From IMG/VR virus record IMGVR_UViG_3300005056_000006: a stretch of 45,616 nucleotides of DNA; one strand, 5' to 3'. Of this stretch, positions 1 to 45,616 are shown in pieces (positions within the stretch are counted from its first letter, which is position 1; each line of letters begins with the position of its first letter). The translations under genes and the position numbers were made by a program. Below the pieces are notes generated by a model, which was not told the DNA's origin, did not search any database, and was given only the letters and a program-made list of their open reading frames with translations. This DNA is from a virus.

Positions 1-99
1 ACCTACAATCTCTTTTAAGGGTGTTAACTCTAAAGTAGTAGAATTCTTTAATGGGTTACCATCTGCTCCGATACCAAACACTTGACCATGCTCGTTAAC
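1..99. repeat. Terminal direct repeat, copy 1 (identical to 45518..45616)
   Basis: Base-by-base comparison, 99/99. Confidence 0.97.
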
Positions 100-630
100 A
101 TCTACCTTTATTTTGTTAGATATTAAAGACATCATGTCCTCACGTGGTAATATAGCGTTGTCAGGAATTAAACTGGATAGACTGTTTTGTATCGTTTGCG
201 TTTTCTTAAAAGAACTGAAATCACTACCTAAAGTACTATTCTTTTCTTCTAAGCCTTTGATCGTACCTTTTAAAGTTAAGATGTCAGAATCTCTCTCTTC
301 TAGCTTTTTGTTAGGCTCAATCTTAGCGTCTAACAATGATTGCTTTATCATTCCGTTAGACCATTCTTTGATTGACTCAATAGAAGTAGTGTCCGACTTA
401 TGAGAACCATCCGTTTCGATTCCTAAACCTTTTATAACTTCCTTTCTTCCAATTTCTGCACCTATCTTAGTACTTTCTTTCTTTAGATTAGTTGTAAAGA
501 GTTCATCCTCTGCTTTAGTTCTCATTACAAAATCGGCTTTAACCTCAATTGATTCTGTTTTGTCCTCGATAGCCTTAGATAAAATATCGTTATCTACTTC
601 TACCATTTTACCGTTGATGTTTATTTTCAT
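1..630 (-). CDS. Putative capsid scaffolding protein, 5' part (210 codons). The ORF runs off the left edge and continues in frame at 45517->45320 across the circular junction (275 aa total).
   Basis: ATG at 630. I translated 630->1 without a stop (MKININGKMVEVDNDILSK...VNEHGQVFGIGAD). The last residues equal the start of tracked ORF 45320..45598. Charged, coiled-coil-like sequence, positioned after the portal. Confidence 0.6.
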   Translation of the reverse strand, partial: MKININGKMVEVDNDILSKAIEDKTESIEVKADFVMRTKAEDELFTTNLKKESTKIGAEIGRKEVIKGLGIETDGSHKSDTTSIESIKEWSNGMIKQSLLDAKIEPNKKLEERDSDILTLKGTIKGLEEKNSTLGSDFSSFKKTQTIQNSLSSLIPDNAILPREDMMSLISNKIKVDVNEHGQVFGIGADGNPLKNSTTLELTPLKEIVG

Positions 631-7613: not shown

Positions 7614-7994
7614 TTATTTCTTTATTAGTGTTAATGCCTCAAACCAAAACATTACAGGCTTATGCTTTATTACTATTCTATTGTAATCAAATGCCATTCT
7701 AAATGCAGCACTATCTCTCTGTAATCTATCGGTCTGCAATTCAATTTCTTTTCTGAAATTTTCTAATTTGAAAGTGCCTTTCCATCGATTACATCTCGCA
7801 CAAGATGGATTATAATTGCTTTCCTCATCTTTACCCCTAACAATTTTCATACGTTCTAAATCCTCATCTGAATTGCTTCTGTATATTGGTATAATGTGGT
7901 CAACTTGCATTTTATTGTATTCAAGACCATTGCCGCAATATGCACATTTACAATCGTACTTTTTCCAAACTCTCTCCCTAACTTCTTCCTTCAT
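7614..7994 (-). CDS. HNH endonuclease
   Basis: CAYCG...QVDHIIP...NYNPSCARCNRWKG: HNH/zinc-ligand pattern. Confidence 0.7.
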   Translation of the reverse strand: MKEEVRERVWKKYDCKCAYCGNGLEYNKMQVDHIIPIYRSNSDEDLERMKIVRGKDEESNYNPSCARCNRWKGTFKLENFRKEIELQTDRLQRDSAAFRMAFDYNRIVIKHKPVMFWFEALTLIKK

Positions 7995-22500: not shown

Positions 22501-22537
22501 GAAAATAAAAAACCTTACTAAATTCATAGTAAGGTTT
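22501..22537 (-). terminator. Intrinsic terminator ending the late/lysis transcription unit
   Basis: Perfect 11-bp stem (22510..22520 / 22527..22537), 6-nt loop, then UUUAUUUU on the minus strand. Confidence 0.75.
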
Positions 22538-40460: not shown

Positions 40461-41536
40461 TATGTAAGCGTTTCGATATAAAGTCTATCGCCTGTAAAAT
40501 CTTGTTTTAATTTGTCTATTTCTTGTTTTATGTCGTCAATGCTTCTCATTAGCTTACTTCTTAATCCTGTAATCTTAACGAATCCTGCACCGCCTTGCTG
40601 TCCTTCAATTTCTTGTATTATTCTTATCGTAATCTGTTCTGCGTTTCTTTGATCTGCATTACTTGTCATTGCAGATAAATACTGTGATAAACAACTTATT
40701 TGTAAGTCGTAAGATATTGCCGTTGCAAATAACTTTTCATTTTGAATAATTATATTTGAATAATCATTGTAAACTTGAAAATCTACATTTAAGCCATTAG
40801 CTAAATCTGTATTTTCAACTTTAGTCAAATCAAACAAACTACTTCCAGAATGATTTTCTACTATTATTTGGTTAACGTTAATATTATCGTAACAAGACTC
40901 TACGCTTGAATTTTCATAATTTCTTTTAAAAGGTGTTATAGCTAATCCTGTTGAGATATAACCAATGTAATACTTTCCTTTAAAATATATGTCTGTGTTG
41001 TCTAACGTCCAGTTTAACACCTCTTCTTGTAAATCCGAAGTGATTGTAATGTTCTTAGTTTGTATTGCCGTAGATGTAGCTGTATTAAATAACAATAAAT
41101 CAAAACTACCTGTACCACTAAATTCTAATATAACTCTAGGAATGCTTAAGGACACATCATTTTGATTCGTTACTTCAACCTCATAACCTACAAATCCATT
41201 AGGTAAAGCTTCTAAATCTATTTTGTTGTTCGCATTTCTAAATATTAAACTTTGCTCTAAAAAAGAACCCTCATTAAATACCGAAGTACATACACTAATA
41301 ATCGAATCCTTTTGCTTATCCTCTAAATTAGTATTAAAGTCAGCATCAGAAATATCGATATAATCCTCAGTAGCTTTTAGAAAATCTAATTTAACTAAAG
41401 GATTATCATTTATAATTAACCCACTACGACTAACTAAGTTAGCAGCCGTTAAAGTAGGCAAAGCAGGATTGTGAGGTTGCCGAAACCCGACAACCCCATA
41501 AACCTTCTGCTTTATTTTATTAATGTTAAACATCAA
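40460..41536 (-). CDS. Virion structural protein, function unassigned
   Basis: 358 aa. Begins 9 nt after the capsid gene stop. Confidence 0.55.
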   Translation of the reverse strand: MMFNINKIKQKVYGVVGFRQPHNPALPTLTAANLVSRSGLIINDNPLVKLDFLKATEDYIDISDADFNTNLEDKQKDSIISVCTSVFNEGSFLEQSLIFRNANNKIDLEALPNGFVGYEVEVTNQNDVSLSIPRVILEFSGTGSFDLLLFNTATSTAIQTKNITITSDLQEEVLNWTLDNTDIYFKGKYYIGYISTGLAITPFKRNYENSSVESCYDNINVNQIIVENHSGSSLFDLTKVENTDLANGLNVDFQVYNDYSNIIIQNEKLFATAISYDLQISCLSQYLSAMTSNADQRNAEQITIRIIQEIEGQQGGAGFVKITGLRSKLMRSIDDIKQEIDKLKQDFTGDRLYIETLT

Positions 41537-41545
41537 AAATATTAA

Positions 41546-42577
41546 TTAAACAAAAGCAAATGCCATCATTGGCGTTTCTCCTGCCGTACTCATAGGAGCA
41601 TGAACATAAGCAACATCAACTGAAAATTCACTTTCCAATTTAACATCTTGTAAATAACCTCCAATTGAAGAAGCATCCGCACTTGTTTCGTAAGTGTGTA
41701 CAGCATACTGTAATGCATCAATAGGATTAATCAATGATCCAAAGTTTGCAACAGTTGTGTTAACACCTCTTACGTTTTGAATCGGAATCCAATTTGGTGC
41801 AGCAACTGAGCCATCAGGAACTACAATCCAATAACCTTTAGCATATGCAGAAACTAATCCAGCAGCAGCAGCAGTTAATGTAATGTCATTTACAAACGTT
41901 ACACCACCCATTTGGAATGCTGTATTTGTTGCGTTTGTTGCTCCATTTGCAGCCAACACTTTGAACTTGCTAAATGCGATAGGGTCACAAACTACTGTAT
42001 GTCCGACACCTTGATATTCGTTAATGTCCATAATAGACTTAGTAACGTCAATTGCAGTATTACCATATAAAGTTTCTGTAATCTCGAAAGTGTCATCTGT
42101 TGCATCAAATGATCCAAATGATGTTGATACGTTTACTCCCGAACGATTAGCAAATAAATAACCAGAAGCAGCAGCTTCCAATCCGTTTGCCATGTTAGCA
42201 ATAAAGTTTTCCATTTTGTTTGCATGCATATCTTCTAGAGACATTACTTTGTTATCCGCTTCTTTCAAAGATGATACAAACTTGTCTGTATAAGTTGCCC
42301 ATGTTGGTGTTAATACTCCAGAATCTCCCTGAACTCCTGTATGATTGTGCGATCTAGCACTACCTAAAGCTCTAAGTTGTTTAATATCGTAATTAAACTC
42401 TGTTACTGGTTTATCCTCTCTGTCTCTTGTTTCAGAAGCCTGAGGTATTAATAATGCTGTGTTTCTTAAAAACATCTTGTGTACTACTGGTTCTCTAAAG
42501 CGTAACTCAGCAGCATTGAAGGCTCTAGTTATCTTTACTTGAGATTTTACTAGTTTAGCCGTGTCAAAATTTGCCAT
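41546..42577 (-). CDS. Major capsid protein (HK97-fold type presumed)
   Basis: 343 aa, A/G/T/V-rich, typical size. Has its own promoter box and long leader. Confidence 0.6.
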   Translation of the reverse strand: MANFDTAKLVKSQVKITRAFNAAELRFREPVVHKMFLRNTALLIPQASETRDREDKPVTEFNYDIKQLRALGSARSHNHTGVQGDSGVLTPTWATYTDKFVSSLKEADNKVMSLEDMHANKMENFIANMANGLEAAASGYLFANRSGVNVSTSFGSFDATDDTFEITETLYGNTAIDVTKSIMDINEYQGVGHTVVCDPIAFSKFKVLAANGATNATNTAFQMGGVTFVNDITLTAAAAGLVSAYAKGYWIVVPDGSVAAPNWIPIQNVRGVNTTVANFGSLINPIDALQYAVHTYETSADASSIGGYLQDVKLESEFSVDVAYVHAPMSTAGETPMMAFAFV

Positions 42578-42612
42578 TTGTATTTTGGTTTTAATGAATG
42601 AAAATTGTTAAT

Positions 42613-42648
42613 GAAGCACGGCTTCTTAGACTTTCGAATACAATTCGA
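42613..42648 (-). promoter_or_regulatory. Conserved double-hairpin leader motif, copy A (before the capsid gene)
   Basis: 30 of the first 34 positions are identical to 38389..38422. GAAGC-N3-GCTTC plus a second stem with one compensatory change. Confidence 0.5.
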
Positions 42649-42653
42649 TGGTA

Positions 42654-42661
42654 CAAATATA
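42654..42661 (-). promoter_or_regulatory. -7 box TATATTTG upstream of the capsid gene (no -33 TTG)
   Basis: Motif match. Lies downstream of terminator 42712..42742. Confidence 0.45.
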
Positions 42662-42662
42662 C

Positions 42663-42698
42663 AATTATTATGTTAAATAGAATTATTATGTTAAATAG
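42663..42698. repeat. Perfect 18-bp tandem duplication AATTATTATGTTAAATAG x2
   Basis: 42663..42680 equals 42681..42698. Confidence 0.9.
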
Positions 42699-42711
42699 AA
42701 TTTCTATAAAT

Positions 42712-42742
42712 AAAAAAACCTACCAAATTAATGATAGGGTTT
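42712..42742 (-). terminator. Intrinsic terminator (module copy 1, weaker stem)
   Basis: Same 27-nt sequence as 43834..43860. The stem needs a bulge. T-run on the minus strand. Confidence 0.5.
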
Positions 42743-42844
42743 AAGTAAAAGAGCAATCTGTTAATTCAGCGTTTTAAACTCCCTAGTACTAAGGAAGTAC
42801 CAATTACTTTTCGTTCATCTTCAAGCAGGATATAAACATAATGA

Positions 42845-43360
42845 TTATTTAATTACCTTATTGACTCTATTATCAGAATCCCTAGTTAAAGCACTCTCTA
42901 CAGCAAGCCAACAGTCTTTCATTTCTTTAATTGACGTTCCGTATCTCATGGCGTAGTCAGTCATTGTTTCGCCTCTTTTTGGTGGTCTACTTGGTTTATT
43001 CATAAAGTCTGGGTAATCATATTTGGCTATACAATTCTTCTCATAAGCTAGTCTTGCATCAAACGCTCGATTATAATTATCAATACTCTCTTGAGTTGGT
43101 ATGTTAGCAACATTAATAAAATTAGGAGCTGCATATTCATTTACTATTATTGAACTAATCCTTTTACCTCTTTGCTCTACCCAAAACCTATTACTGATAA
43201 GTGTTTTTTGATTTACCAGTCTTATACCTCTCCATTTTAGCTTACCCTTTGTAATATCTCCCTTTATTATAGGAACTGCTAAGTTTCTCAAAACATATTC
43301 TAAGAACTCCTCTCTTTCAGAATCAAATGATTTAATAAGCTTTTCTATTGTTTTTTCCAT
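42845..43360 (-). CDS. Hypothetical protein (accessory island)
   Basis: 171-aa tracked ORF. Confidence 0.55.
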   Translation of the reverse strand: MEKTIEKLIKSFDSEREEFLEYVLRNLAVPIIKGDITKGKLKWRGIRLVNQKTLISNRFWVEQRGKRISSIIVNEYAAPNFINVANIPTQESIDNYNRAFDARLAYEKNCIAKYDYPDFMNKPSRPPKRGETMTDYAMRYGTSIKEMKDCWLAVESALTRDSDNRVNKVIK

Positions 43361-43371
43361 TTCTTTTAAAA

Positions 43372-43662
43372 TTAATTAAAGCACCATAGATGCTCATCGT
43401 TATTTATCTTGTTAGTATATTCAATTTTATACTTATAATTAACTTTTGGTTTTTTATCTATAAACCACCTTCCTAATGAGTCAAACCAACCATTTCCAGC
43501 AAATGAAACACAGTTAATTCTATGTTGTTTTTTAATCATTCTTATTTGCTTACCTCCGCTCTTAACTTCTTCTGAATATCTAATTGCAGCCTCTTGTATT
43601 TTAATCTCATTTTCTCTTAACAGACTCATATCAACTGATGGTAACATCATATTACATACCAT
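43372..43662 (-). CDS. Hypothetical protein (accessory island)
   Basis: 96-aa tracked ORF about 20 nt after the leader terminator. Confidence 0.5.
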   Translation of the reverse strand: MVCNMMLPSVDMSLLRENEIKIQEAAIRYSEEVKSGGKQIRMIKKQHRINCVSFAGNGWFDSLGRWFIDKKPKVNYKYKIEYTNKINNDEHLWCFN

Positions 43663-43682
43663 AATCTAAAACTTTTTATAAC

Positions 43683-43724
43683 AAAAAAAAGCCCCGTTCT
43701 TTTGAAACGAGGTTAGGGGGCTTT
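43683..43724 (-). terminator. Leader terminator: GCCCC...GGGGC hairpin plus U8
   Basis: GC clamp 43691..43695 / 43717..43721, inner GTTC-TTTT-GAAAC stem, A8 on the plus strand (43683..43690). Confidence 0.65.
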
Positions 43725-43805
43725 AAAAAGGTATTATCCTTTTATAAAATACTATATGTCTTTATTTGTTGTTATCTATAACCTCGTTTCAAAAAGTAGA
43801 TAACA
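43700..43805 (-). promoter_or_regulatory. Leader RNA element: 9-bp hairpin presenting a 16-nt loop sequence complementary to the terminator 5' arm
   Basis: 43770..43778 / 43797..43805 form the stem. 43779..43794 is the exact reverse complement of 43700..43715. Confidence 0.55.
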
Positions 43806-43808
43806 TTG

Positions 43809-43816
43809 CAAATGTA
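43809..43816 (-). promoter_or_regulatory. -7 box TACATTTG
   Basis: Motif match, between two terminators. Confidence 0.45.
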
Positions 43817-43832
43817 GTATTAATTATTGGAT

Positions 43833-43863
43833 AAAAAAAACCTACCAAATTAATGATAGGTTT
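43833..43863 (-). terminator. Intrinsic terminator (module copy 2)
   Basis: AACCTACCA / TGATAGGTT stem with one mismatch, loop AATTAA, then a T run (8) on the minus strand. Confidence 0.65.
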
Positions 43864-43966
43864 TAAATATAAGTGTGTAACATAATTATTGCACTACTAT
43901 TGATTGTTAGATTGTTTGTTGCACATTAGTTGTATATAGCCACGTGTTAGCAAACATTAAAACGTT

Positions 43967-44194
43967 TTACATCATTTGCTGTGCTGCATCTTCCATTCCT
44001 GCAAAGTATGCTATCTTTTTTTGCTCTTCCAACTCTTCTTTGCTAACACTACCTAAAGCAACATTAACTTCGTTTTTGTGGTTCTCGCAAAGGTGCGTTA
44101 TTCTGCTAATCAAATCAGCTTTATTAATTTTATAACCGCTTTTTCTAAAGCAATCATCTGCTAAACTTTCTATTGTCATTGTATCGTAGTTCAT
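43967..44194 (-). CDS. Hypothetical protein (accessory island)
   Basis: 75-aa tracked ORF. Its 5' flank is near-identical to that of 44248..44535. Confidence 0.5.
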   Translation of the reverse strand: MNYDTMTIESLADDCFRKSGYKINKADLISRITHLCENHKNEVNVALGSVSKEELEEQKKIAYFAGMEDAAQQMM

Positions 44195-44247
44195 AATCTT
44201 TGTAGTTTTTAATCGTTAACGTTCTTTAGCTTTGTCATTAGCGGTAA

Positions 44248-44535
44248 TTAAACATCATATTGTGGTGAGCAATAACATTTGCCATTTTTCTGCTCATCAT
44301 CAAGGCAGCAATCGCAATAGTTACTATTTAAGTCTTGCCGATCCTCCTTGGTTAGGGCTTTGTATTGTTCTGCTAAAGAACTACCGATAACATTATCTAT
44401 AGGTAATGCTTGCCCTTGCTTTATCTCGTTTAGGGAGTCATTAATTCTTTTCTTAATATCTACCGTACTATATCCAACAACATCTAAGTAAGAGTCTATG
44501 CTTTTTAATGTTGCAATTGTTATTTTGTAATCCAT
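44248..44535 (-). CDS. Hypothetical Cys-rich-tail protein (accessory island)
   Basis: 95-aa tracked ORF with C-terminal YCDCCLDDEQKNGKCYC. Confidence 0.5.
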   Translation of the reverse strand: MDYKITIATLKSIDSYLDVVGYSTVDIKKRINDSLNEIKQGQALPIDNVIGSSLAEQYKALTKEDRQDLNSNYCDCCLDDEQKNGKCYCSPQYDV

Positions 44536-44589
44536 AATCTTTTATAGTTTTTAAGTTCGGGCAATCACTACCCATAGTTTAGCTATTAA

Positions 44590-44630
44590 TTAAAAAACCC
44601 CTAAGCATCCGACAAGACTACTTAAGGGTT
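44590..44630 (-). terminator. Intrinsic terminator (also a leader terminator for promoter 44668)
   Basis: 10-bp stem with one mismatch (44596..44605 / 44621..44630), then a U-rich tail (UUUUUA) on the minus strand. Confidence 0.6.
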
Positions 44631-44667
44631 AGTATAATTTCTTTAGTTACTGTCGGTTAACTTATTG

Positions 44668-44697
44668 CAAATATACAATAATTATTAAAAAGGACAA
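44668..44697 (-). promoter_or_regulatory. Promoter TTG-N19-TATATTTG
   Basis: TTG at 44697..44695, 19-nt spacer, box at 44675..44668. Confidence 0.5.
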
Positions 44698-44939
44698 TCT
44701 TTTGAAATGGTTTTATCAACTTTAAAATTAATAATACCAGTCATTGACTCTAATTGACTCATTGATAACCTCTTTTGATTTAATAAATAACCATTATGAT
44801 TTCCCACCTTAATAATATTAAGCTCTTTTAATGGAAGAAATCTTTTACCTATCATTTGAGGTAATCTGAAAAGTATTTTATATTTCCATCCGTATAGATA
44901 GCCTTTAAAAGTTATTCCATATTCATAATTTATAATCAT
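44685..44939 (-). CDS. Hypothetical protein (accessory island)
   Basis: 84-aa tracked ORF. Confidence 0.45.
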   Translation of the reverse strand: MIINYEYGITFKGYLYGWKYKILFRLPQMIGKRFLPLKELNIIKVGNHNGYLLNQKRLSMSQLESMTGIINFKVDKTISKDCPF

Positions 44940-44986
44940 ATTTTACATATTTAGTGTTGTTTATCCGCTTGTTAGGGTGCATTAAG

Positions 44987-45091
44987 CTACACCTTAACAA
45001 TTTTTCTTTCTCCTTTGCAGTGGGCGTAACCTATATCAGATACTACTACCCAAAATCTACCTACTTTAATCTCGTACTGTGTTCTTTTCAT
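44987..45091 (-). CDS. 34-aa ORF bracketed by a 16-bp inverted repeat (uncertain)
   Basis: Hand-translated: MKRTQYEIKVGRFWVVVSDIGYAHCKGERKIVKV. Confidence 0.2.
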   Translation of the reverse strand: MKRTQYEIKVGRFWVVVSDIGYAHCKGERKIVKV

Positions 45092-45210
45092 AATTTATAC
45101 AATTAACGCACCCTAACACTGGCTAAAATTAATAGCCTAATTAGGTCTTGCTGTAATTTTATTGGTCAGTAATTAACGGCTACTAACCTTAACCTAAGCA
45201 TTAATTAAAA

Positions 45211-45218
45211 CAAATGTA
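45211..45218 (-). promoter_or_regulatory. -7 box TACATTTG
   Basis: Motif match downstream of terminator 45261..45294. Same 10-mer (CAAATGTACG on the plus strand) as at 6201. Confidence 0.35.
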
Positions 45219-45260
45219 CGCAATTAAATTGATTATATGTAAAAGTATGTAATTATTCAT

Positions 45261-45294
45261 ATAAAAAAAGCCCTACTAATTAAAGTAAGGCTTT
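45261..45294 (-). terminator. Intrinsic terminator after the scaffold-like gene
   Basis: 11-bp stem with one mismatch (45267..45277 / 45284..45294), loop AATTAA, T-run on the minus strand. Confidence 0.65.
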
Positions 45295-45319
45295 CCGACA
45301 TGAAAGAAAAATAGAAAGT

Positions 45320-45616
45320 CTATACTTTTAATGTTCCTGCGGACATCCTTTCCTCCATTTGTTTAAGAAACTCTGGACTGTTTGGATCAGTATTGTTGTC
45401 TGCCATTTCCTCTATAAACTTCTCTATAGATTGTGTAGCATCAGCACCTCTAGAGTCTCCTCCTCCTGCTCCTCCAGAAGCTCCTTTTGTGTATTGTGTG
45501 TTTTCAGCAAAGAAAGTACCTACAATCTCTTTTAAGGGTGTTAACTCTAAAGTAGTAGAATTCTTTAATGGGTTACCATCTGCTCCGATACCAAACACTT
45601 GACCATGCTCGTTAAC
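45320..45616 (-). CDS. 3' part of the wrap-around scaffold-like gene (45518..45616 duplicates 1..99)
   Basis: The tracked ORF 45320..45598 begins inside the duplicated sequence. The frame is continuous with 630..1. Confidence 0.6.
   Translation of the reverse strand, partial: VNEHGQVFGIGADGNPLKNSTTLELTPLKEIVGTFFAENTQYTKGASGGAGGGDSRGADATQSIEKFIEEMADNNTDPNSPEFLKQMEERMSAGTLKV
45518..45616. repeat. Terminal direct repeat, copy 2
   Basis: Base-by-base comparison, 99/99. Confidence 0.97.

Follow-up and report, generated by a model that had tools for sequence, protein, structure and literature searches.

What occupies the DNA between the scaffold-like gene and the major capsid gene of this phage, and how did it come to be there? 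We addressed this in the whole stretch analysed (IMG/VR record IMGVR_UViG_3300005056_000006, 45,616 nucleotides, hereafter the window), in which an earlier note had described a moron-like accessory island. The phage is a marine, Flavobacteriia-type siphovirus of 45 kb with Bacteroidota-type promoters, and its host probably belongs to the Flavobacteriaceae. We consider it likely that the locus is a hyperplastic accessory-gene island at an insulated scaffold-capsid junction, made of three units with independently acquired cargo and attenuated leaders; accessory regions of this sort are commonplace in phages, whereas the genes and RNA elements found here are novel.

Boundaries of the island

The first and last 99 nt of the window are identical, and this overlap indicates a circular assembly. 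The boundary genes are the following.

45320..45616, minus strand: 3' part of the scaffold-like gene, which crosses the circular junction into window 1-630
41546..42577, minus strand: major capsid protein gene, the island's lower boundary (phrog_7231, E = 1.9e-28)

Joined across the junction, segments 630..1 and 45517..45320 encode a protein of 275 aa that is homologous to Pan5 gp5 and MD05 gp74, both in scaffold position, and 3 of its 15 homologues matched the PHROG 'head scaffolding protein' (phrog_206). The major capsid protein is 32% identical to that of Pan5. With the scaffold-like stop (included) at 45320 and the capsid ATG at 42577, the DNA between them (45319..42578) measures 2,742 nt, in agreement with the 2.7 kb estimated earlier. 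Only 61% of it is coding, and its base composition is not distinctive (GC 29.9% vs 31.5% for the genome).

The same junction in related phages

The junction was compared in 77 related-phage loci in which both genes could be placed. As the earlier note had supposed, the two genes are separated only by an intergenic region of 140-350 nt in most relatives (50 of the 77); the distance is below 70 nt in 5 and 0.36-3.5 kb in the rest. The small junctions hold, in order, a terminator, a TAnnTTTG box and a two-hairpin structured capsid leader. None of the 77 loci carries a homologue of a window ORF at the junction, and the alternative that these ORFs are conserved head components, raised in the same note, failed on this comparison. 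Enlarged junctions occur in a minority of relatives, and their cargo always differs from that of the window; it includes an N6/N4 methyltransferase (E = 1.4e-19), a C5 methyltransferase (E = 1.1e-54) and a PDDEXK_14 nuclease (E = 2.2e-8). Such cargo, with its orphan DNA methyltransferases and its nuclease, is in keeping with the anti-defence type expected at a site like this. The junction thus behaves as an insertion hotspot across the relatives. The other copies of this phage that we found (loci L027 and L028) are all identical to the window. We propose that the island built up at a junction that would be transcriptionally insulated, the scaffold gene ending in a terminator and the capsid gene, after it, having a promoter and a structured leader of its own.

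Predicted promoters and terminators

All of the following signals are on the minus strand, and the promoter boxes are motif matches.

45258..45296, minus strand: T1, after the scaffold gene; 13-bp hairpin and U-run, -21.7 kcal/mol, z = -7.2
45211..45218, minus strand: P1 box TACATTTG, Bacteroidota -7 type, unit 1
44668..44675, minus strand: P2 box TATATTTG, unit 2
44591-44628, minus strand: T2 (T44600), hairpin/T-tract at the end of leader 1
43829..43864, minus strand: T3 (T43850), hairpin/T-tract carrying the 20-mer CCTATCATTAATTTGGTAGG
43809..43816, minus strand: P3 box TACATTTG, unit 3
43684-43712, minus strand: T4 (T43700), hairpin/T-tract at the end of leader 2
42712..42742, minus strand: T5 (T42730), a 93% copy of T3 with an identical 20-mer CCTATCATTAATTTGGTAGG
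42654..42661, minus strand: P4, capsid promoter box TATATTTG, position kept in relatives

The five hairpin and T-tract terminators noted earlier were all recovered. A consensus scan of 41000-45616 gave 6 sites vs 1.8 +/- 1.3 in shuffles; terminator-like sites in the remaining 40 kb were at chance level, a single intergenic one on the minus strand, at 22537, being convincing, and five of the genome's roughly six good terminators lie inside the island. For the promoters, four internal TAnnTTTG boxes plus the capsid box had been counted; the capsid box and three internal ones stand, four in all and not five, and a further match, at 44227, has the opposite orientation. Across the genome the bare motif is about as frequent as expected by chance (26 observed vs about 25 expected); the four island boxes belong to about 11 intergenic TAyATTTG sites, the island region being 6% of the genome. 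Around P2, 17 of 18 nt are identical to the capsid promoter.

If these sequence-based predictions hold, the island would be divided into three transcription units, each complete in itself and on the minus strand. The first, unit 1, would start at P45218, carry an inverted-repeat element with a 34-aa ORF and then the 84-aa gene, and end at T44600; unit 2 would run from P44675 through leader 1 with T44600 and the 95-aa and 75-aa genes to T43850; and unit 3 from P43816 through leader 2 with T43700 and the 96-aa and 171-aa genes to T42730.

The duplicated terminator modules that had been noted are present as 40-nt direct repeats (43834-43873 and 42712-42751; 93% identical, 1,122 nt apart), and T1 is a third copy, 74% identical to the T3 reference copy. 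T5 also matches Cellulophaga phages phi4:1 and phi17:2 at 91%. The terminator 20-mer is present in 55 IMG/VR contigs, where its flanks fall into more than 20 distinct contexts (counted from the listing), and each copy is closed by a T-rich tail.

These repeats bear on how the island arose, a question whose answer is compatible with the accessory-island reading. Cassettes may have been acquired by homologous recombination between repeated terminator-promoter modules, like the PeSL cassettes in the hyperplastic regions of T4-like phages (PMC2839356, PMC4122927); exchange at the 40-nt repeats would then excise or insert a 1,122-bp circle carrying leader 2, the 96-aa gene and the 171-aa gene. The three related terminators, each followed by a promoter box after 20-60 nt, point this way, as do the terminator-then-promoter arrangement with an identical hairpin in the unrelated phage phi4:1, the varied contexts of the 20-mer and the PeSL precedent itself. 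However, the hairpin is missing both from the related-phage junctions checked and from the loci encoding cargo homologues, no cassette-less variant was found among copies of this phage (L027 and L028), and 40 nt is short for efficient recombination. We hold this route to be possible and propose it only tentatively. Like the PeSL regions, the island is a cluster of small ORFan genes bordered by composite terminator-promoter motifs that recur; it lies where the genome varies most, and its content differs between relatives. In contrast to them, its promoters are of the Bacteroidota -7 TAnnTTTG type and not sigma-70 early promoters, its hairpin stands upstream of the promoter instead of being interleaved with it, and it resides in a 45-kb siphovirus in which motif recombination and mini-circles are only proposed.

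Structured leaders

44970..45118, minus strand: inverted-repeat element of 149 bp; 16-nt arms 45103-45118 / 44970-44985, 15/16 complementary
44591..44667, minus strand: leader 1, about 70 nt, ending in T2 (44628-44591)
43684..43808, minus strand: leader 2, about 120 nt, with a 5' hairpin and arms overlapping T4 (43712-43684)

The 149-bp element, already recognised as bracketed by inverted repeats, folds with its arms in a long-range stem in the minimum-free-energy RNA structure (z = -3.05), and the two promoter-then-terminator leaders reported with it were found as P44675 -> T44600 and P43816 -> T43700. In leader 1 the terminator fold has -18.3 vs -12.5 kcal/mol for the alternative. Leader 2 carries perfectly complementary 16-nt arms (43779-43794 / 43700-43715), and its antiterminator fold differs by only 0.7 from the 5' hairpin plus terminator (-25.2 vs -24.5 kcal/mol); in folds of its prefixes the 5' hairpin is the first to form. 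We regard leader 2 as a candidate bistable (two-state) attenuator. No promoter box occurs between T2 and the 95-aa ORF, nor between T4 and the ORF that follows it, and consequently the four real genes downstream, those of units 2 and 3, would be transcribed only when polymerase reads past the promoter-proximal terminator of their unit.

Promoter-proximal terminators that are read through by regulated antitermination or attenuation are known from lambda PR'-tR' with Q and from leader attenuators. The island shares with them the order of promoter, short structured leader, intrinsic terminator and genes lacking their own promoter, and the predicted terminator and antiterminator folds of leader 2 are, as in attenuators, mutually exclusive and near-isoenergetic. 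The differences are that this phage yielded neither a Q-like protein nor a qut site and that the island leaders have no leader peptide, known ligand-binding fold, Rfam family or conservation in other genomes, neither leader having a detectable counterpart elsewhere.

Instead of acting in cis as attenuators, the two leaders could encode short RNAs that act in trans (about 70 and 120 nt), with leak-through as the only source of expression for the ORFs behind them. Each does combine a promoter box with a structured RNA followed by a strong U-tract terminator, and leader 1 clearly prefers its terminator fold; however, the same lack of internal promoter boxes, the lack of significant complementarity to the rest of the phage genome and the lack of an Rfam match make this unlikely.

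Small ORFs of the island

Five to six small ORFs had been counted in the gap. We found six, all on the minus strand; five have support as genes and the 34-aa ORF does not.

44987-45091, minus strand: 34-aa ORF of doubtful coding status, enclosed by the 149-bp element
44685..44939, minus strand: 84-aa gene, conserved beta-rich small-protein family
44248..44535, minus strand: 95-aa gene; N-terminal module, QGQALPIDNV linker, Cys-rich C-terminal module
43967..44194, minus strand: 75-aa gene; conserved 40-aa N-terminal module, variable C-terminus
43372..43662, minus strand: 96-aa gene, conserved family with invariant Cys3 and C-terminal CF motif
42845..43360, minus strand: 171-aa gene, fusion of two families that usually stand alone

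A search of 1.84 billion representatives returned 445 matches at E <= 0.001, and the best 150, which are those listed, include homologues for 5 of the 6 ORFs. Judged by these homologues, the five are real genes with metagenomic families. The 34-aa ORF had none among the best 150 of the 445 and only a marginal PHROG match (E = 0.024). Among the matches listed, the 84-aa gene has 26 homologues; its product is 43% identical to gp063 of Tenacibaculum phage Gundel_1, and its AlphaFold2 model (pLDDT 94, pTM 0.80) matched no known fold (Foldseek vs PDB, best E = 1.1). Homologues of the 95-aa gene share one or other of its modules, and chimeras occur. The 11 listed homologues of the 75-aa gene have an almost invariant N-terminus and unrelated C-termini, and the 96-aa gene has six listed, with 40-60% identity. 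For the 171-aa gene, the matches listed comprise 67 of N type (about residues 1-80) and 36 of C type (about 85-170), mostly of 70-130 aa; the C part is predicted to be all-helical with a helix-turn-helix-like end (pLDDT above 95), and fold searches with the protein gave no significant match.

The near-identical 5' flanks reported for the 95-aa and 75-aa ORFs do exist (21 nt; chance expectation 0.02). The weak similarity claimed for their N-termini is not significant (BLASTP E = 1.9; hhalign E = 0.11, within the shuffle range), which leaves a duplication origin of the pair unsupported. No paralogue of an island ORF was found within the window.

Cargo and the nature of the island

The absence of recognisable motifs noted earlier extends to profile and structure searches: Pfam, PHROGs, NCBIfam, PADLOC, a PDB sequence search and Foldseek were all negative for the cargo families, and none of the cargo proteins could be given a function. 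In all five families that have homologues, these occupy early or replication gene blocks, in phages unrelated to this one. Genes for DnaJ and ThyA adjoin in one context, DnaA_C-like and DUF3127 genes in another, and methyltransferase and DnaB genes in a third, and one 96-aa gene homologue is part of an early-type block of a phage. For the 84-aa gene, the homologues reside in recombination/replication blocks and not in head modules, next to VRR_NUC, Rad52, NUMOD4 and methyltransferase genes, and in Gundel_1 next to Ant and HNH genes. We interpret the cargo as small, putatively non-structural proteins, similar in kind to those encoded in early/replication blocks of other phages, which may serve host takeover, anti-defence or regulation. 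No two cargo families co-occurred in four loci that were compared and were long enough to show neighbours, and the genes may have been acquired independently of one another.

Morons were reportedly defined by Juhala, Hendrix and colleagues in lambdoid and other temperate phages. Like them, the island is extra DNA between genes that abut in relatives, has its own predicted promoters and factor-independent terminators, and sits within a late structural operon with cargo unrelated to virion assembly. In contrast to them, it has three tandem units and not one, two of them with promoter-proximal terminators, its expression is predicted from sequence alone, its composition is not atypical and nothing points to a temperate phage. 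Lysogenic-conversion morons of the classical type, which a repressed prophage expresses to the benefit of the lysogen, would account for a promoter and terminator per unit and for flanking genes that adjoin in relatives, but they are very improbable here: the PHROG-scanned ORFs, which include all of at least 300 aa, yielded no integrase or recombinase, no ORF of that size can be one, and all genes share one strand, a divergent lysogeny module being absent. Since an integrase is missing from that scan, composition is undistinctive and the ORF duplication is unsupported, we keep the earlier description as far as an accessory island between otherwise adjacent genes, and call it a hyperplastic region and not a strict moron.

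Plasticity regions are also known in the head modules of Mu-like Pseudomonas phages, namely the anti-CRISPR RGP G and, between the protease-scaffold and major head genes, RGP H, where the junction gene was proposed to encode a decoration protein (PMC4378225). Short accessory ORFs (34-100 codons), fixed head-block hotspots including the scaffold-capsid junction, and anti-defence cargo in such hotspots (here the methyltransferases of relatives) are common to both; Acr/Aca homology, unlike in RGP G, is no part of our assignment, and, unlike for RGP H, the evidence speaks against a structural role. The least probable explanation is that at least one island ORF is a head-assembly accessory (decoration or cement protein, protease or chaperone), for although the position matches lambda D (gpD) and PaMx73 gene h (PMC4378225), the ORFs are of 9-11 kDa, the 84-aa protein is beta-rich and the near identity of P2 and the capsid promoter suggests co-expression, no relative conserves the ORFs at the junction, homologues of the 84-aa and other families lie outside head modules, and neither a fold match to any solved decoration protein nor similarity to the Pan5 cement protein was detected.

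The capsid mRNA leader

42658..42694, minus strand: two tandem 18-nt repeats ATTCTATTTAACATAATA, from a repeat search
42613..42648, minus strand: capsid mRNA leader; hairpin 1 (42648-42634), AAGTCT, hairpin 2 (42625-42613)

At the lower edge of the island, a third, partial copy of the 18-nt repeat overlaps the -7 box of the capsid promoter. Hairpin 1 of the capsid leader covaries (0/500 shuffles). The two-hairpin leader is conserved in relatives as well.

The scaffold–capsid junction across related phages

Between the stop of the scaffold-like gene (45320) and the ATG of the major capsid gene (42577) lie 2,742 nt, 61% of them coding, with six ORFs of 34, 84, 95, 75, 96 and 171 aa on the minus strand, which agrees with the earlier note's description of a gap of about 2.7 kb holding five to six small ORFs of 34-171 aa. 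The same note had held that scaffold and capsid genes normally abut, and we examined this claim by synteny. Single-sequence capsid scans of IMG/VR and of metagenomes gave no match, and relatives were found only by alignment-based scans of IMG/VR and metagenome contigs, which yielded 86 related loci with capsid identities of 26-61%. In 77 of them the positions of both genes could be determined, including Pseudanabaena phage Pan5 and Rhodobacteraceae phage MD05, whose proteins at the same position align with the 275-aa scaffold-like protein. Members of this scaffold-like family matched the PHROG 'head scaffolding protein' in 3 of 15 cases and one PHROG of unknown function in 13 of 15, and the family profile found no match among PDB sequences.

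Scaffold–capsid distance in the 77 related loci
1-67 nt: 5 loci
140-350 nt: 50 loci
0.36-0.9 kb: 13 loci
1.2-1.8 kb: 5 loci
2.2-3.5 kb: 4 loci

The two genes are thus at most 350 nt apart in 55 of the 77 loci (256 nt in Pan5, 53 nt in MD05), as the note had supposed, and the 2.7-kb gap of the window ranks with the largest. What short gaps contain is fixed, a terminator being followed by a TAnnTTTG box and this by a two-hairpin leader, from which we infer that the ancestral state is an insulated terminator-promoter junction and that the expansions came later. When all relatives were searched by tblastn, no homologue of the six window ORFs was found at their junctions. One subclade (L006-L015) carries a conserved 122-aa ORF right after the scaffold gene, and the junctions of the closest relatives (L003, L183, L184) hold sets of 60-191-aa ORFs. 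Three kinds of gene at this junction could be recognised.

Recognisable genes at the same junction in related loci
L184, 3686-4489: N6/N4 DNA methyltransferase
L209, 747-2027: C5 cytosine DNA methyltransferase
L184, 3243-3674, and also L183 and L003: PDDEXK_14 nuclease-like protein

Since the relatives carry different cargo and no homologues of the window's genes, these comparisons indicate that the junction is a hotspot that was filled on several independent occasions, in some cases with genes recognisable as anti-restriction genes. The island itself recurs in the ENA contig ERZ23495903 (48,347 bp; identical over all 20,288 nt fetched) and in a 3.4-kb JGI contig. Besides the window, the only copies found of this phage (contigs L027 and L028) are 100% identical to it, and the next relatives have at most 61% capsid identity.

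Predicted transcription units of the island

The five hairpin/T-tract terminators that had been claimed for the island were all found, and they make up five of about six in the genome. In a consensus scan, the last 4.6 kb contained 6 terminator-like sites versus 1.8 +/- 1.3 in shuffles, and in the other 40 kb the count was at chance, with a single convincing intergenic site at 22537. TAnnTTTG boxes on the coding strand number four with the capsid one included (45218, 44675, 43816 and 42661), one fewer than the note had listed; the extra box, at 44227, lies on the other strand. The bare TAnnTTTG motif is not enriched genome-wide, and the four boxes of the island are among about 11 intergenic TAyATTTG sites; sigma-70-like promoter matches were at chance. 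Delimited by these predicted boxes (P) and terminators (T), the island would comprise three transcription units.

Putative transcription units, minus strand
P45218 to T44600: unit 1
P44675 to T43850: unit 2
P43816 to T42730: unit 3

Further elements proposed in the note were also present: two promoter-then-terminator leaders, a 149-bp inverted-repeat element, which surrounds the 34-aa ORF, and a duplicated terminator module of 40 nt whose copies are 93% identical and 1,122 nt apart. Directly upstream of the capsid promoter box, two tandem ATTCTATTTAACATAATA 18-mers occupy 42658-42694, and a third, degenerate copy overlaps the box; these repeats may act as an activator site or UP-like element. 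The closest relative, L003, has short tandem repeats of GTAAAT type and AAGCATTTGCT type upstream of its capsid promoter (7780-7880).

The leaders of units 2 and 3

Units 2 and 3 begin with leaders of 70 and 120 nt, respectively, each promoter-proximal and each ending in a terminator, and because no further box precedes the ORFs, their expression would need read-through. In the leader of unit 3 (leader 2), a perfect 16-bp long-range helix is predicted to take up the 5' half of the terminator, giving an antiterminator fold of -25.2 kcal/mol, while the alternative fold, a 5' hairpin plus the terminator, reaches -24.5 kcal/mol. When the 5' hairpin sequesters the upstream arm the terminator would form instead, and on growing transcript prefixes this hairpin is predicted to form first. 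Leader 2 thus combines, by prediction, a promoter-proximal terminator, an exclusive antiterminator and downstream genes without a promoter of their own, and by this anatomy we regard it as a candidate two-state attenuator. The case for the leader of unit 2 (leader 1) is weaker, as the terminator fold is favoured there (-18.3 vs -12.5 kcal/mol). Neither leader gave anything beyond noise against Rfam at E <= 1, the core of leader 2 had 0 exact matches in IMG/VR, and no leader-complementary targets were found within the phage genome.

A conserved leader of the capsid gene

In the window's clade the capsid leader (42613-42661 in the window) is composed of the promoter, a 6-bp hairpin with a YGY loop, the motif AAAGTCT and a second hairpin of 5 bp whose loop is NGT; L003, L004 and L171-L189 have it at the corresponding position. 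In an unbiased MAFFT alignment of 18 sequences, hairpin 1 was 83% paired and showed 28 double-change cells versus 10.4 in shuffles, a value reached by 0 of 500 shuffles; the covariation collapsed once the partner was slid. Hairpin 2 behaved likewise when scored on hand-picked hairpins, and in both stems compensatory changes are numerous when relatives are compared. In more distant relatives, the cyanophage Pan5 among them, the analogous hairpins number two or three and have loops of GGT type. Compared with Rfam, the capsid leader had no match.

A recurrent terminator hairpin

The 20-mer CCTATCATTAATTTGGTAGG, which constitutes the stem and loop of a terminator, occurs at 43838-43857 (in T43850) and at 42719-42738 (in T42730). 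We found it in 55 IMG/VR contigs (L035-L098) in more than 20 distinct, unrelated flanking contexts, as counted from the listing, and just 9 times in cellular genomes (596 Gb, bacteria and archaea). In IMG/VR every copy runs into a T-rich tail, and the bases on either side of the core complement each other and covary between contexts. The loop ATTAATTT or a one-base variant of it is present in 31 of 55 non-redundant hairpins with the CCTATCATTAATTTGGTAGG stem. In the window, a terminator repeat family (D1) comprises three related copies, each followed by a promoter box, and Cellulophaga phage phi4:1 has an identical hairpin in the same terminator-then-promoter arrangement. The hairpin was absent from those junctions of relatives and those loci of cargo homologues that were checked.

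In the hyperplastic regions of T4-like phages, composite terminator/promoter cassettes (PeSL) mediate module shuffling (PMC2839356, PMC4122927). The island resembles these in having a repeated terminator and promoter motif beside ORFans in a variable region. PeSL, however, interleave a sigma-70-type early promoter with the stem-loop, whereas the TAnnTTTG boxes of the island lie 20-60 nt downstream of the hairpin. By analogy, the island may have grown through PeSL-like terminator/promoter modules.

Cargo genes and their families

A word-indexed protein search with a concatenate of the six ORFs gave no match, but exhaustive phmmer with the same query returned 445 proteins at E <= 0.001. When the best 150 of the 445 were sorted by ORF, 26 homologues of about 84 aa fell to the 84-aa ORF, 6 to the 96-aa ORF, 5 to the 95-aa ORF and 11 to the 75-aa ORF. 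The 171-aa ORF (42845-43360) collected 67 matches to its N half and 36 to its C half, which belong to separate families of mostly standalone proteins of 70-130 aa, and it is therefore a fusion. The 34-aa ORF is doubtful, as it had no homologue among these best 150.

The note had recognised no motif in these ORFs, and profile and structure searches likewise gave no significant match. Cargo families and their members found none in Pfam, PHROGs, NCBIfam or PADLOC; the six ORFs had 0 hits in PADLOC, no curated anti-defence or defence model being matched, and the 84-aa and 96-aa family profiles had no match among PDB sequences. AlphaFold2 gave a confident beta-rich model of the 84-aa protein (pLDDT 94, pTM 0.80), for which Foldseek found no match in the PDB (best E = 1.1). 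For the 171-aa protein, the C-domain was modelled confidently as all-helical (pLDDT >95), its last helices looking like a helix-turn-helix, and Foldseek with the model of this protein as query returned nothing below E = 0.4 from the PDB or BFVD. The 34-aa and 84-aa ORFs were also considered as homing endonucleases, a reading dismissed because no library gave an HNH, GIY-YIG or LAGLIDADG signal.

The 95-aa and 75-aa ORFs do share, as noted earlier, a 5' flank, of 21 nt directly upstream of their ATGs, and a duplication had been proposed from it and from weakly similar N-termini. This proposal failed: the two proteins have no detectable homology (BLASTP E = 1.9). A profile match of 97.5% between the two families proved an artefact, arising because a chimeric homologue, P0037, sat in both alignments; without P0037 the match had E = 0.11, inside the shuffle range. 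What is real in these families is modularity. The homologue P0111 carries an N module of the 95 type and P0037 one of the 75 type, the C module and the QGQSLPIDSV linker being common to both, and the Cys-rich C module of the 95-aa protein is also found behind other N-termini.

Cargo homologues are found on phage contigs, surrounded by early, replication or recombination genes. Those of the 96-aa family are near DnaJ and ThyA genes, those of the 75-aa family near DnaA_C-like and DUF3127 genes, those of the 171-aa C-domain family near methyltransferase and DnaB genes, and those of the 84-aa family near VRR_NUC, Rad52-like, NUMOD4 and methyltransferase genes or, in Tenacibaculum phage Gundel_1, near Ant and HNH. 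In the four homologue loci examined that extended far enough to reveal neighbouring genes, no two cargo families co-occurred, and no cargo paralogues were found in the window. In lambda and Pseudomonas Mu-like phages, what lies between the scaffold and capsid genes is usually a gene for a decoration protein (PMC4378225). The neighbourhoods of the cargo homologues argue against such a structural role, and a lambda gpD-like decoration or cement protein is very unlikely, since the island genes show no junction conservation, no fold match for the 84-aa model and no homologues in head modules. The island proteins also showed no similarity to the Pan5 cement protein.

Classification of the island

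The earlier note had called the island moron-like. Its accessory nature held up by synteny, by the reality of the genes and by their context; the designation as a moron in the strict sense did not. In favour of the latter, the island lies between genes that are adjacent in related phages, and the sequence alone predicts promoters and terminators of its own, with three boxes, four internal terminators and three units. Against it, the composition is not atypical (29.9% GC versus 31.5% for the genome, the 84-aa gene at 24% being the lone outlier), and the carrier does not appear temperate, with no integrase among the scanned ORFs, those of >=300 aa being all assigned elsewhere or in the tail block. 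We conclude that the island belongs to a known general kind, the hyperplastic region, and is neither a strict moron nor a duplication.

As genome architecture such an island is expected rather than surprising. Its value is that the junction, which is empty in most relatives and occupied by methyltransferases in some, is a well-defined place to seek new counter-defence or host-takeover genes in phages of marine Bacteroidota. It has yielded five uncharacterised small-protein families, two of which swap modules at a conserved linker and one of which has a confident predicted structure without a detectable PDB match, as well as a candidate two-state attenuator and a capsid leader motif supported by covariation. 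For the cargo, our best guess is an anti-defence or host-interaction role, by analogy with the methyltransferases at the same hotspot in relatives. That the regulatory RNAs and the cargo of the island together represent new functional classes we consider rather unlikely. On that reading, accessory genes would be gated by a phage-encoded bistable attenuator in leader 2 and perhaps in leader 1; the capsid leader, with its AAAGUCU motif and NGU loop, would represent a new, conserved cis-regulatory RNA in a siphovirus lineage that is widespread in aquatic habitats, acting for example as a 5' stabiliser or as a site for a late-expression factor; and the 84-aa protein and the modular proteins of 95 and 75 aa would act as new effectors of anti-defence or host takeover.

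Genome organization and host

Positions 1-99 and 45518-45616 are identical over 99 nt and constitute a circular-assembly overlap, so that the real genome is about 45,517 bp; the scaffold-like gene is cut by the window boundary, and joining the ends restores the 275-aa ORF. Every long ORF is on the minus strand, genome GC is about 31%, and no tRNAs were found in the window.

Head and tail genes in minus-strand order
Small terminase, first: phrog_606
Large terminase, after the small terminase: Pfam Terminase_3
1098-2717, minus: portal, 539 aa, 28% identity to the Pan5 portal (E = 3e-63)
633-1094, minus: 153-aa protein, between the portal and scaffold genes
Minus, just upstream of the island: 275-aa scaffold-like protein
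Minus, directly after the island: major capsid protein, phrog_7231, 32% identity to the Pan5 major capsid protein
Minus, after the major capsid gene: adaptor-like and tail-terminator-like proteins
Minus, after these: tape-measure protein, 1,110 aa, then more tail genes

The genome also encodes an endolysin, Erf, a methyltransferase and a DnaB helicase. TAnnTTTG-type boxes, a terminator shared with Cellulophaga phages, and the homologue of one island ORF in Gundel_1 point to a host among the Flavobacteriaceae. Residues ~275-303 of the portal form a CxxC...CxxC segment, CRPCQGTGKSNDGKGCTTCKGSGK, with a weak match to the DnaJ zinc finger (E = 6.7e-4); the segment is also kept in the Pan5 portal. 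The C-terminus of the 153-aa protein weakly matches the HeH/LEM domain and an Arc-like repressor PHROG (E = 6.4e-6), and Pan5 has a protein of similar size at this position.
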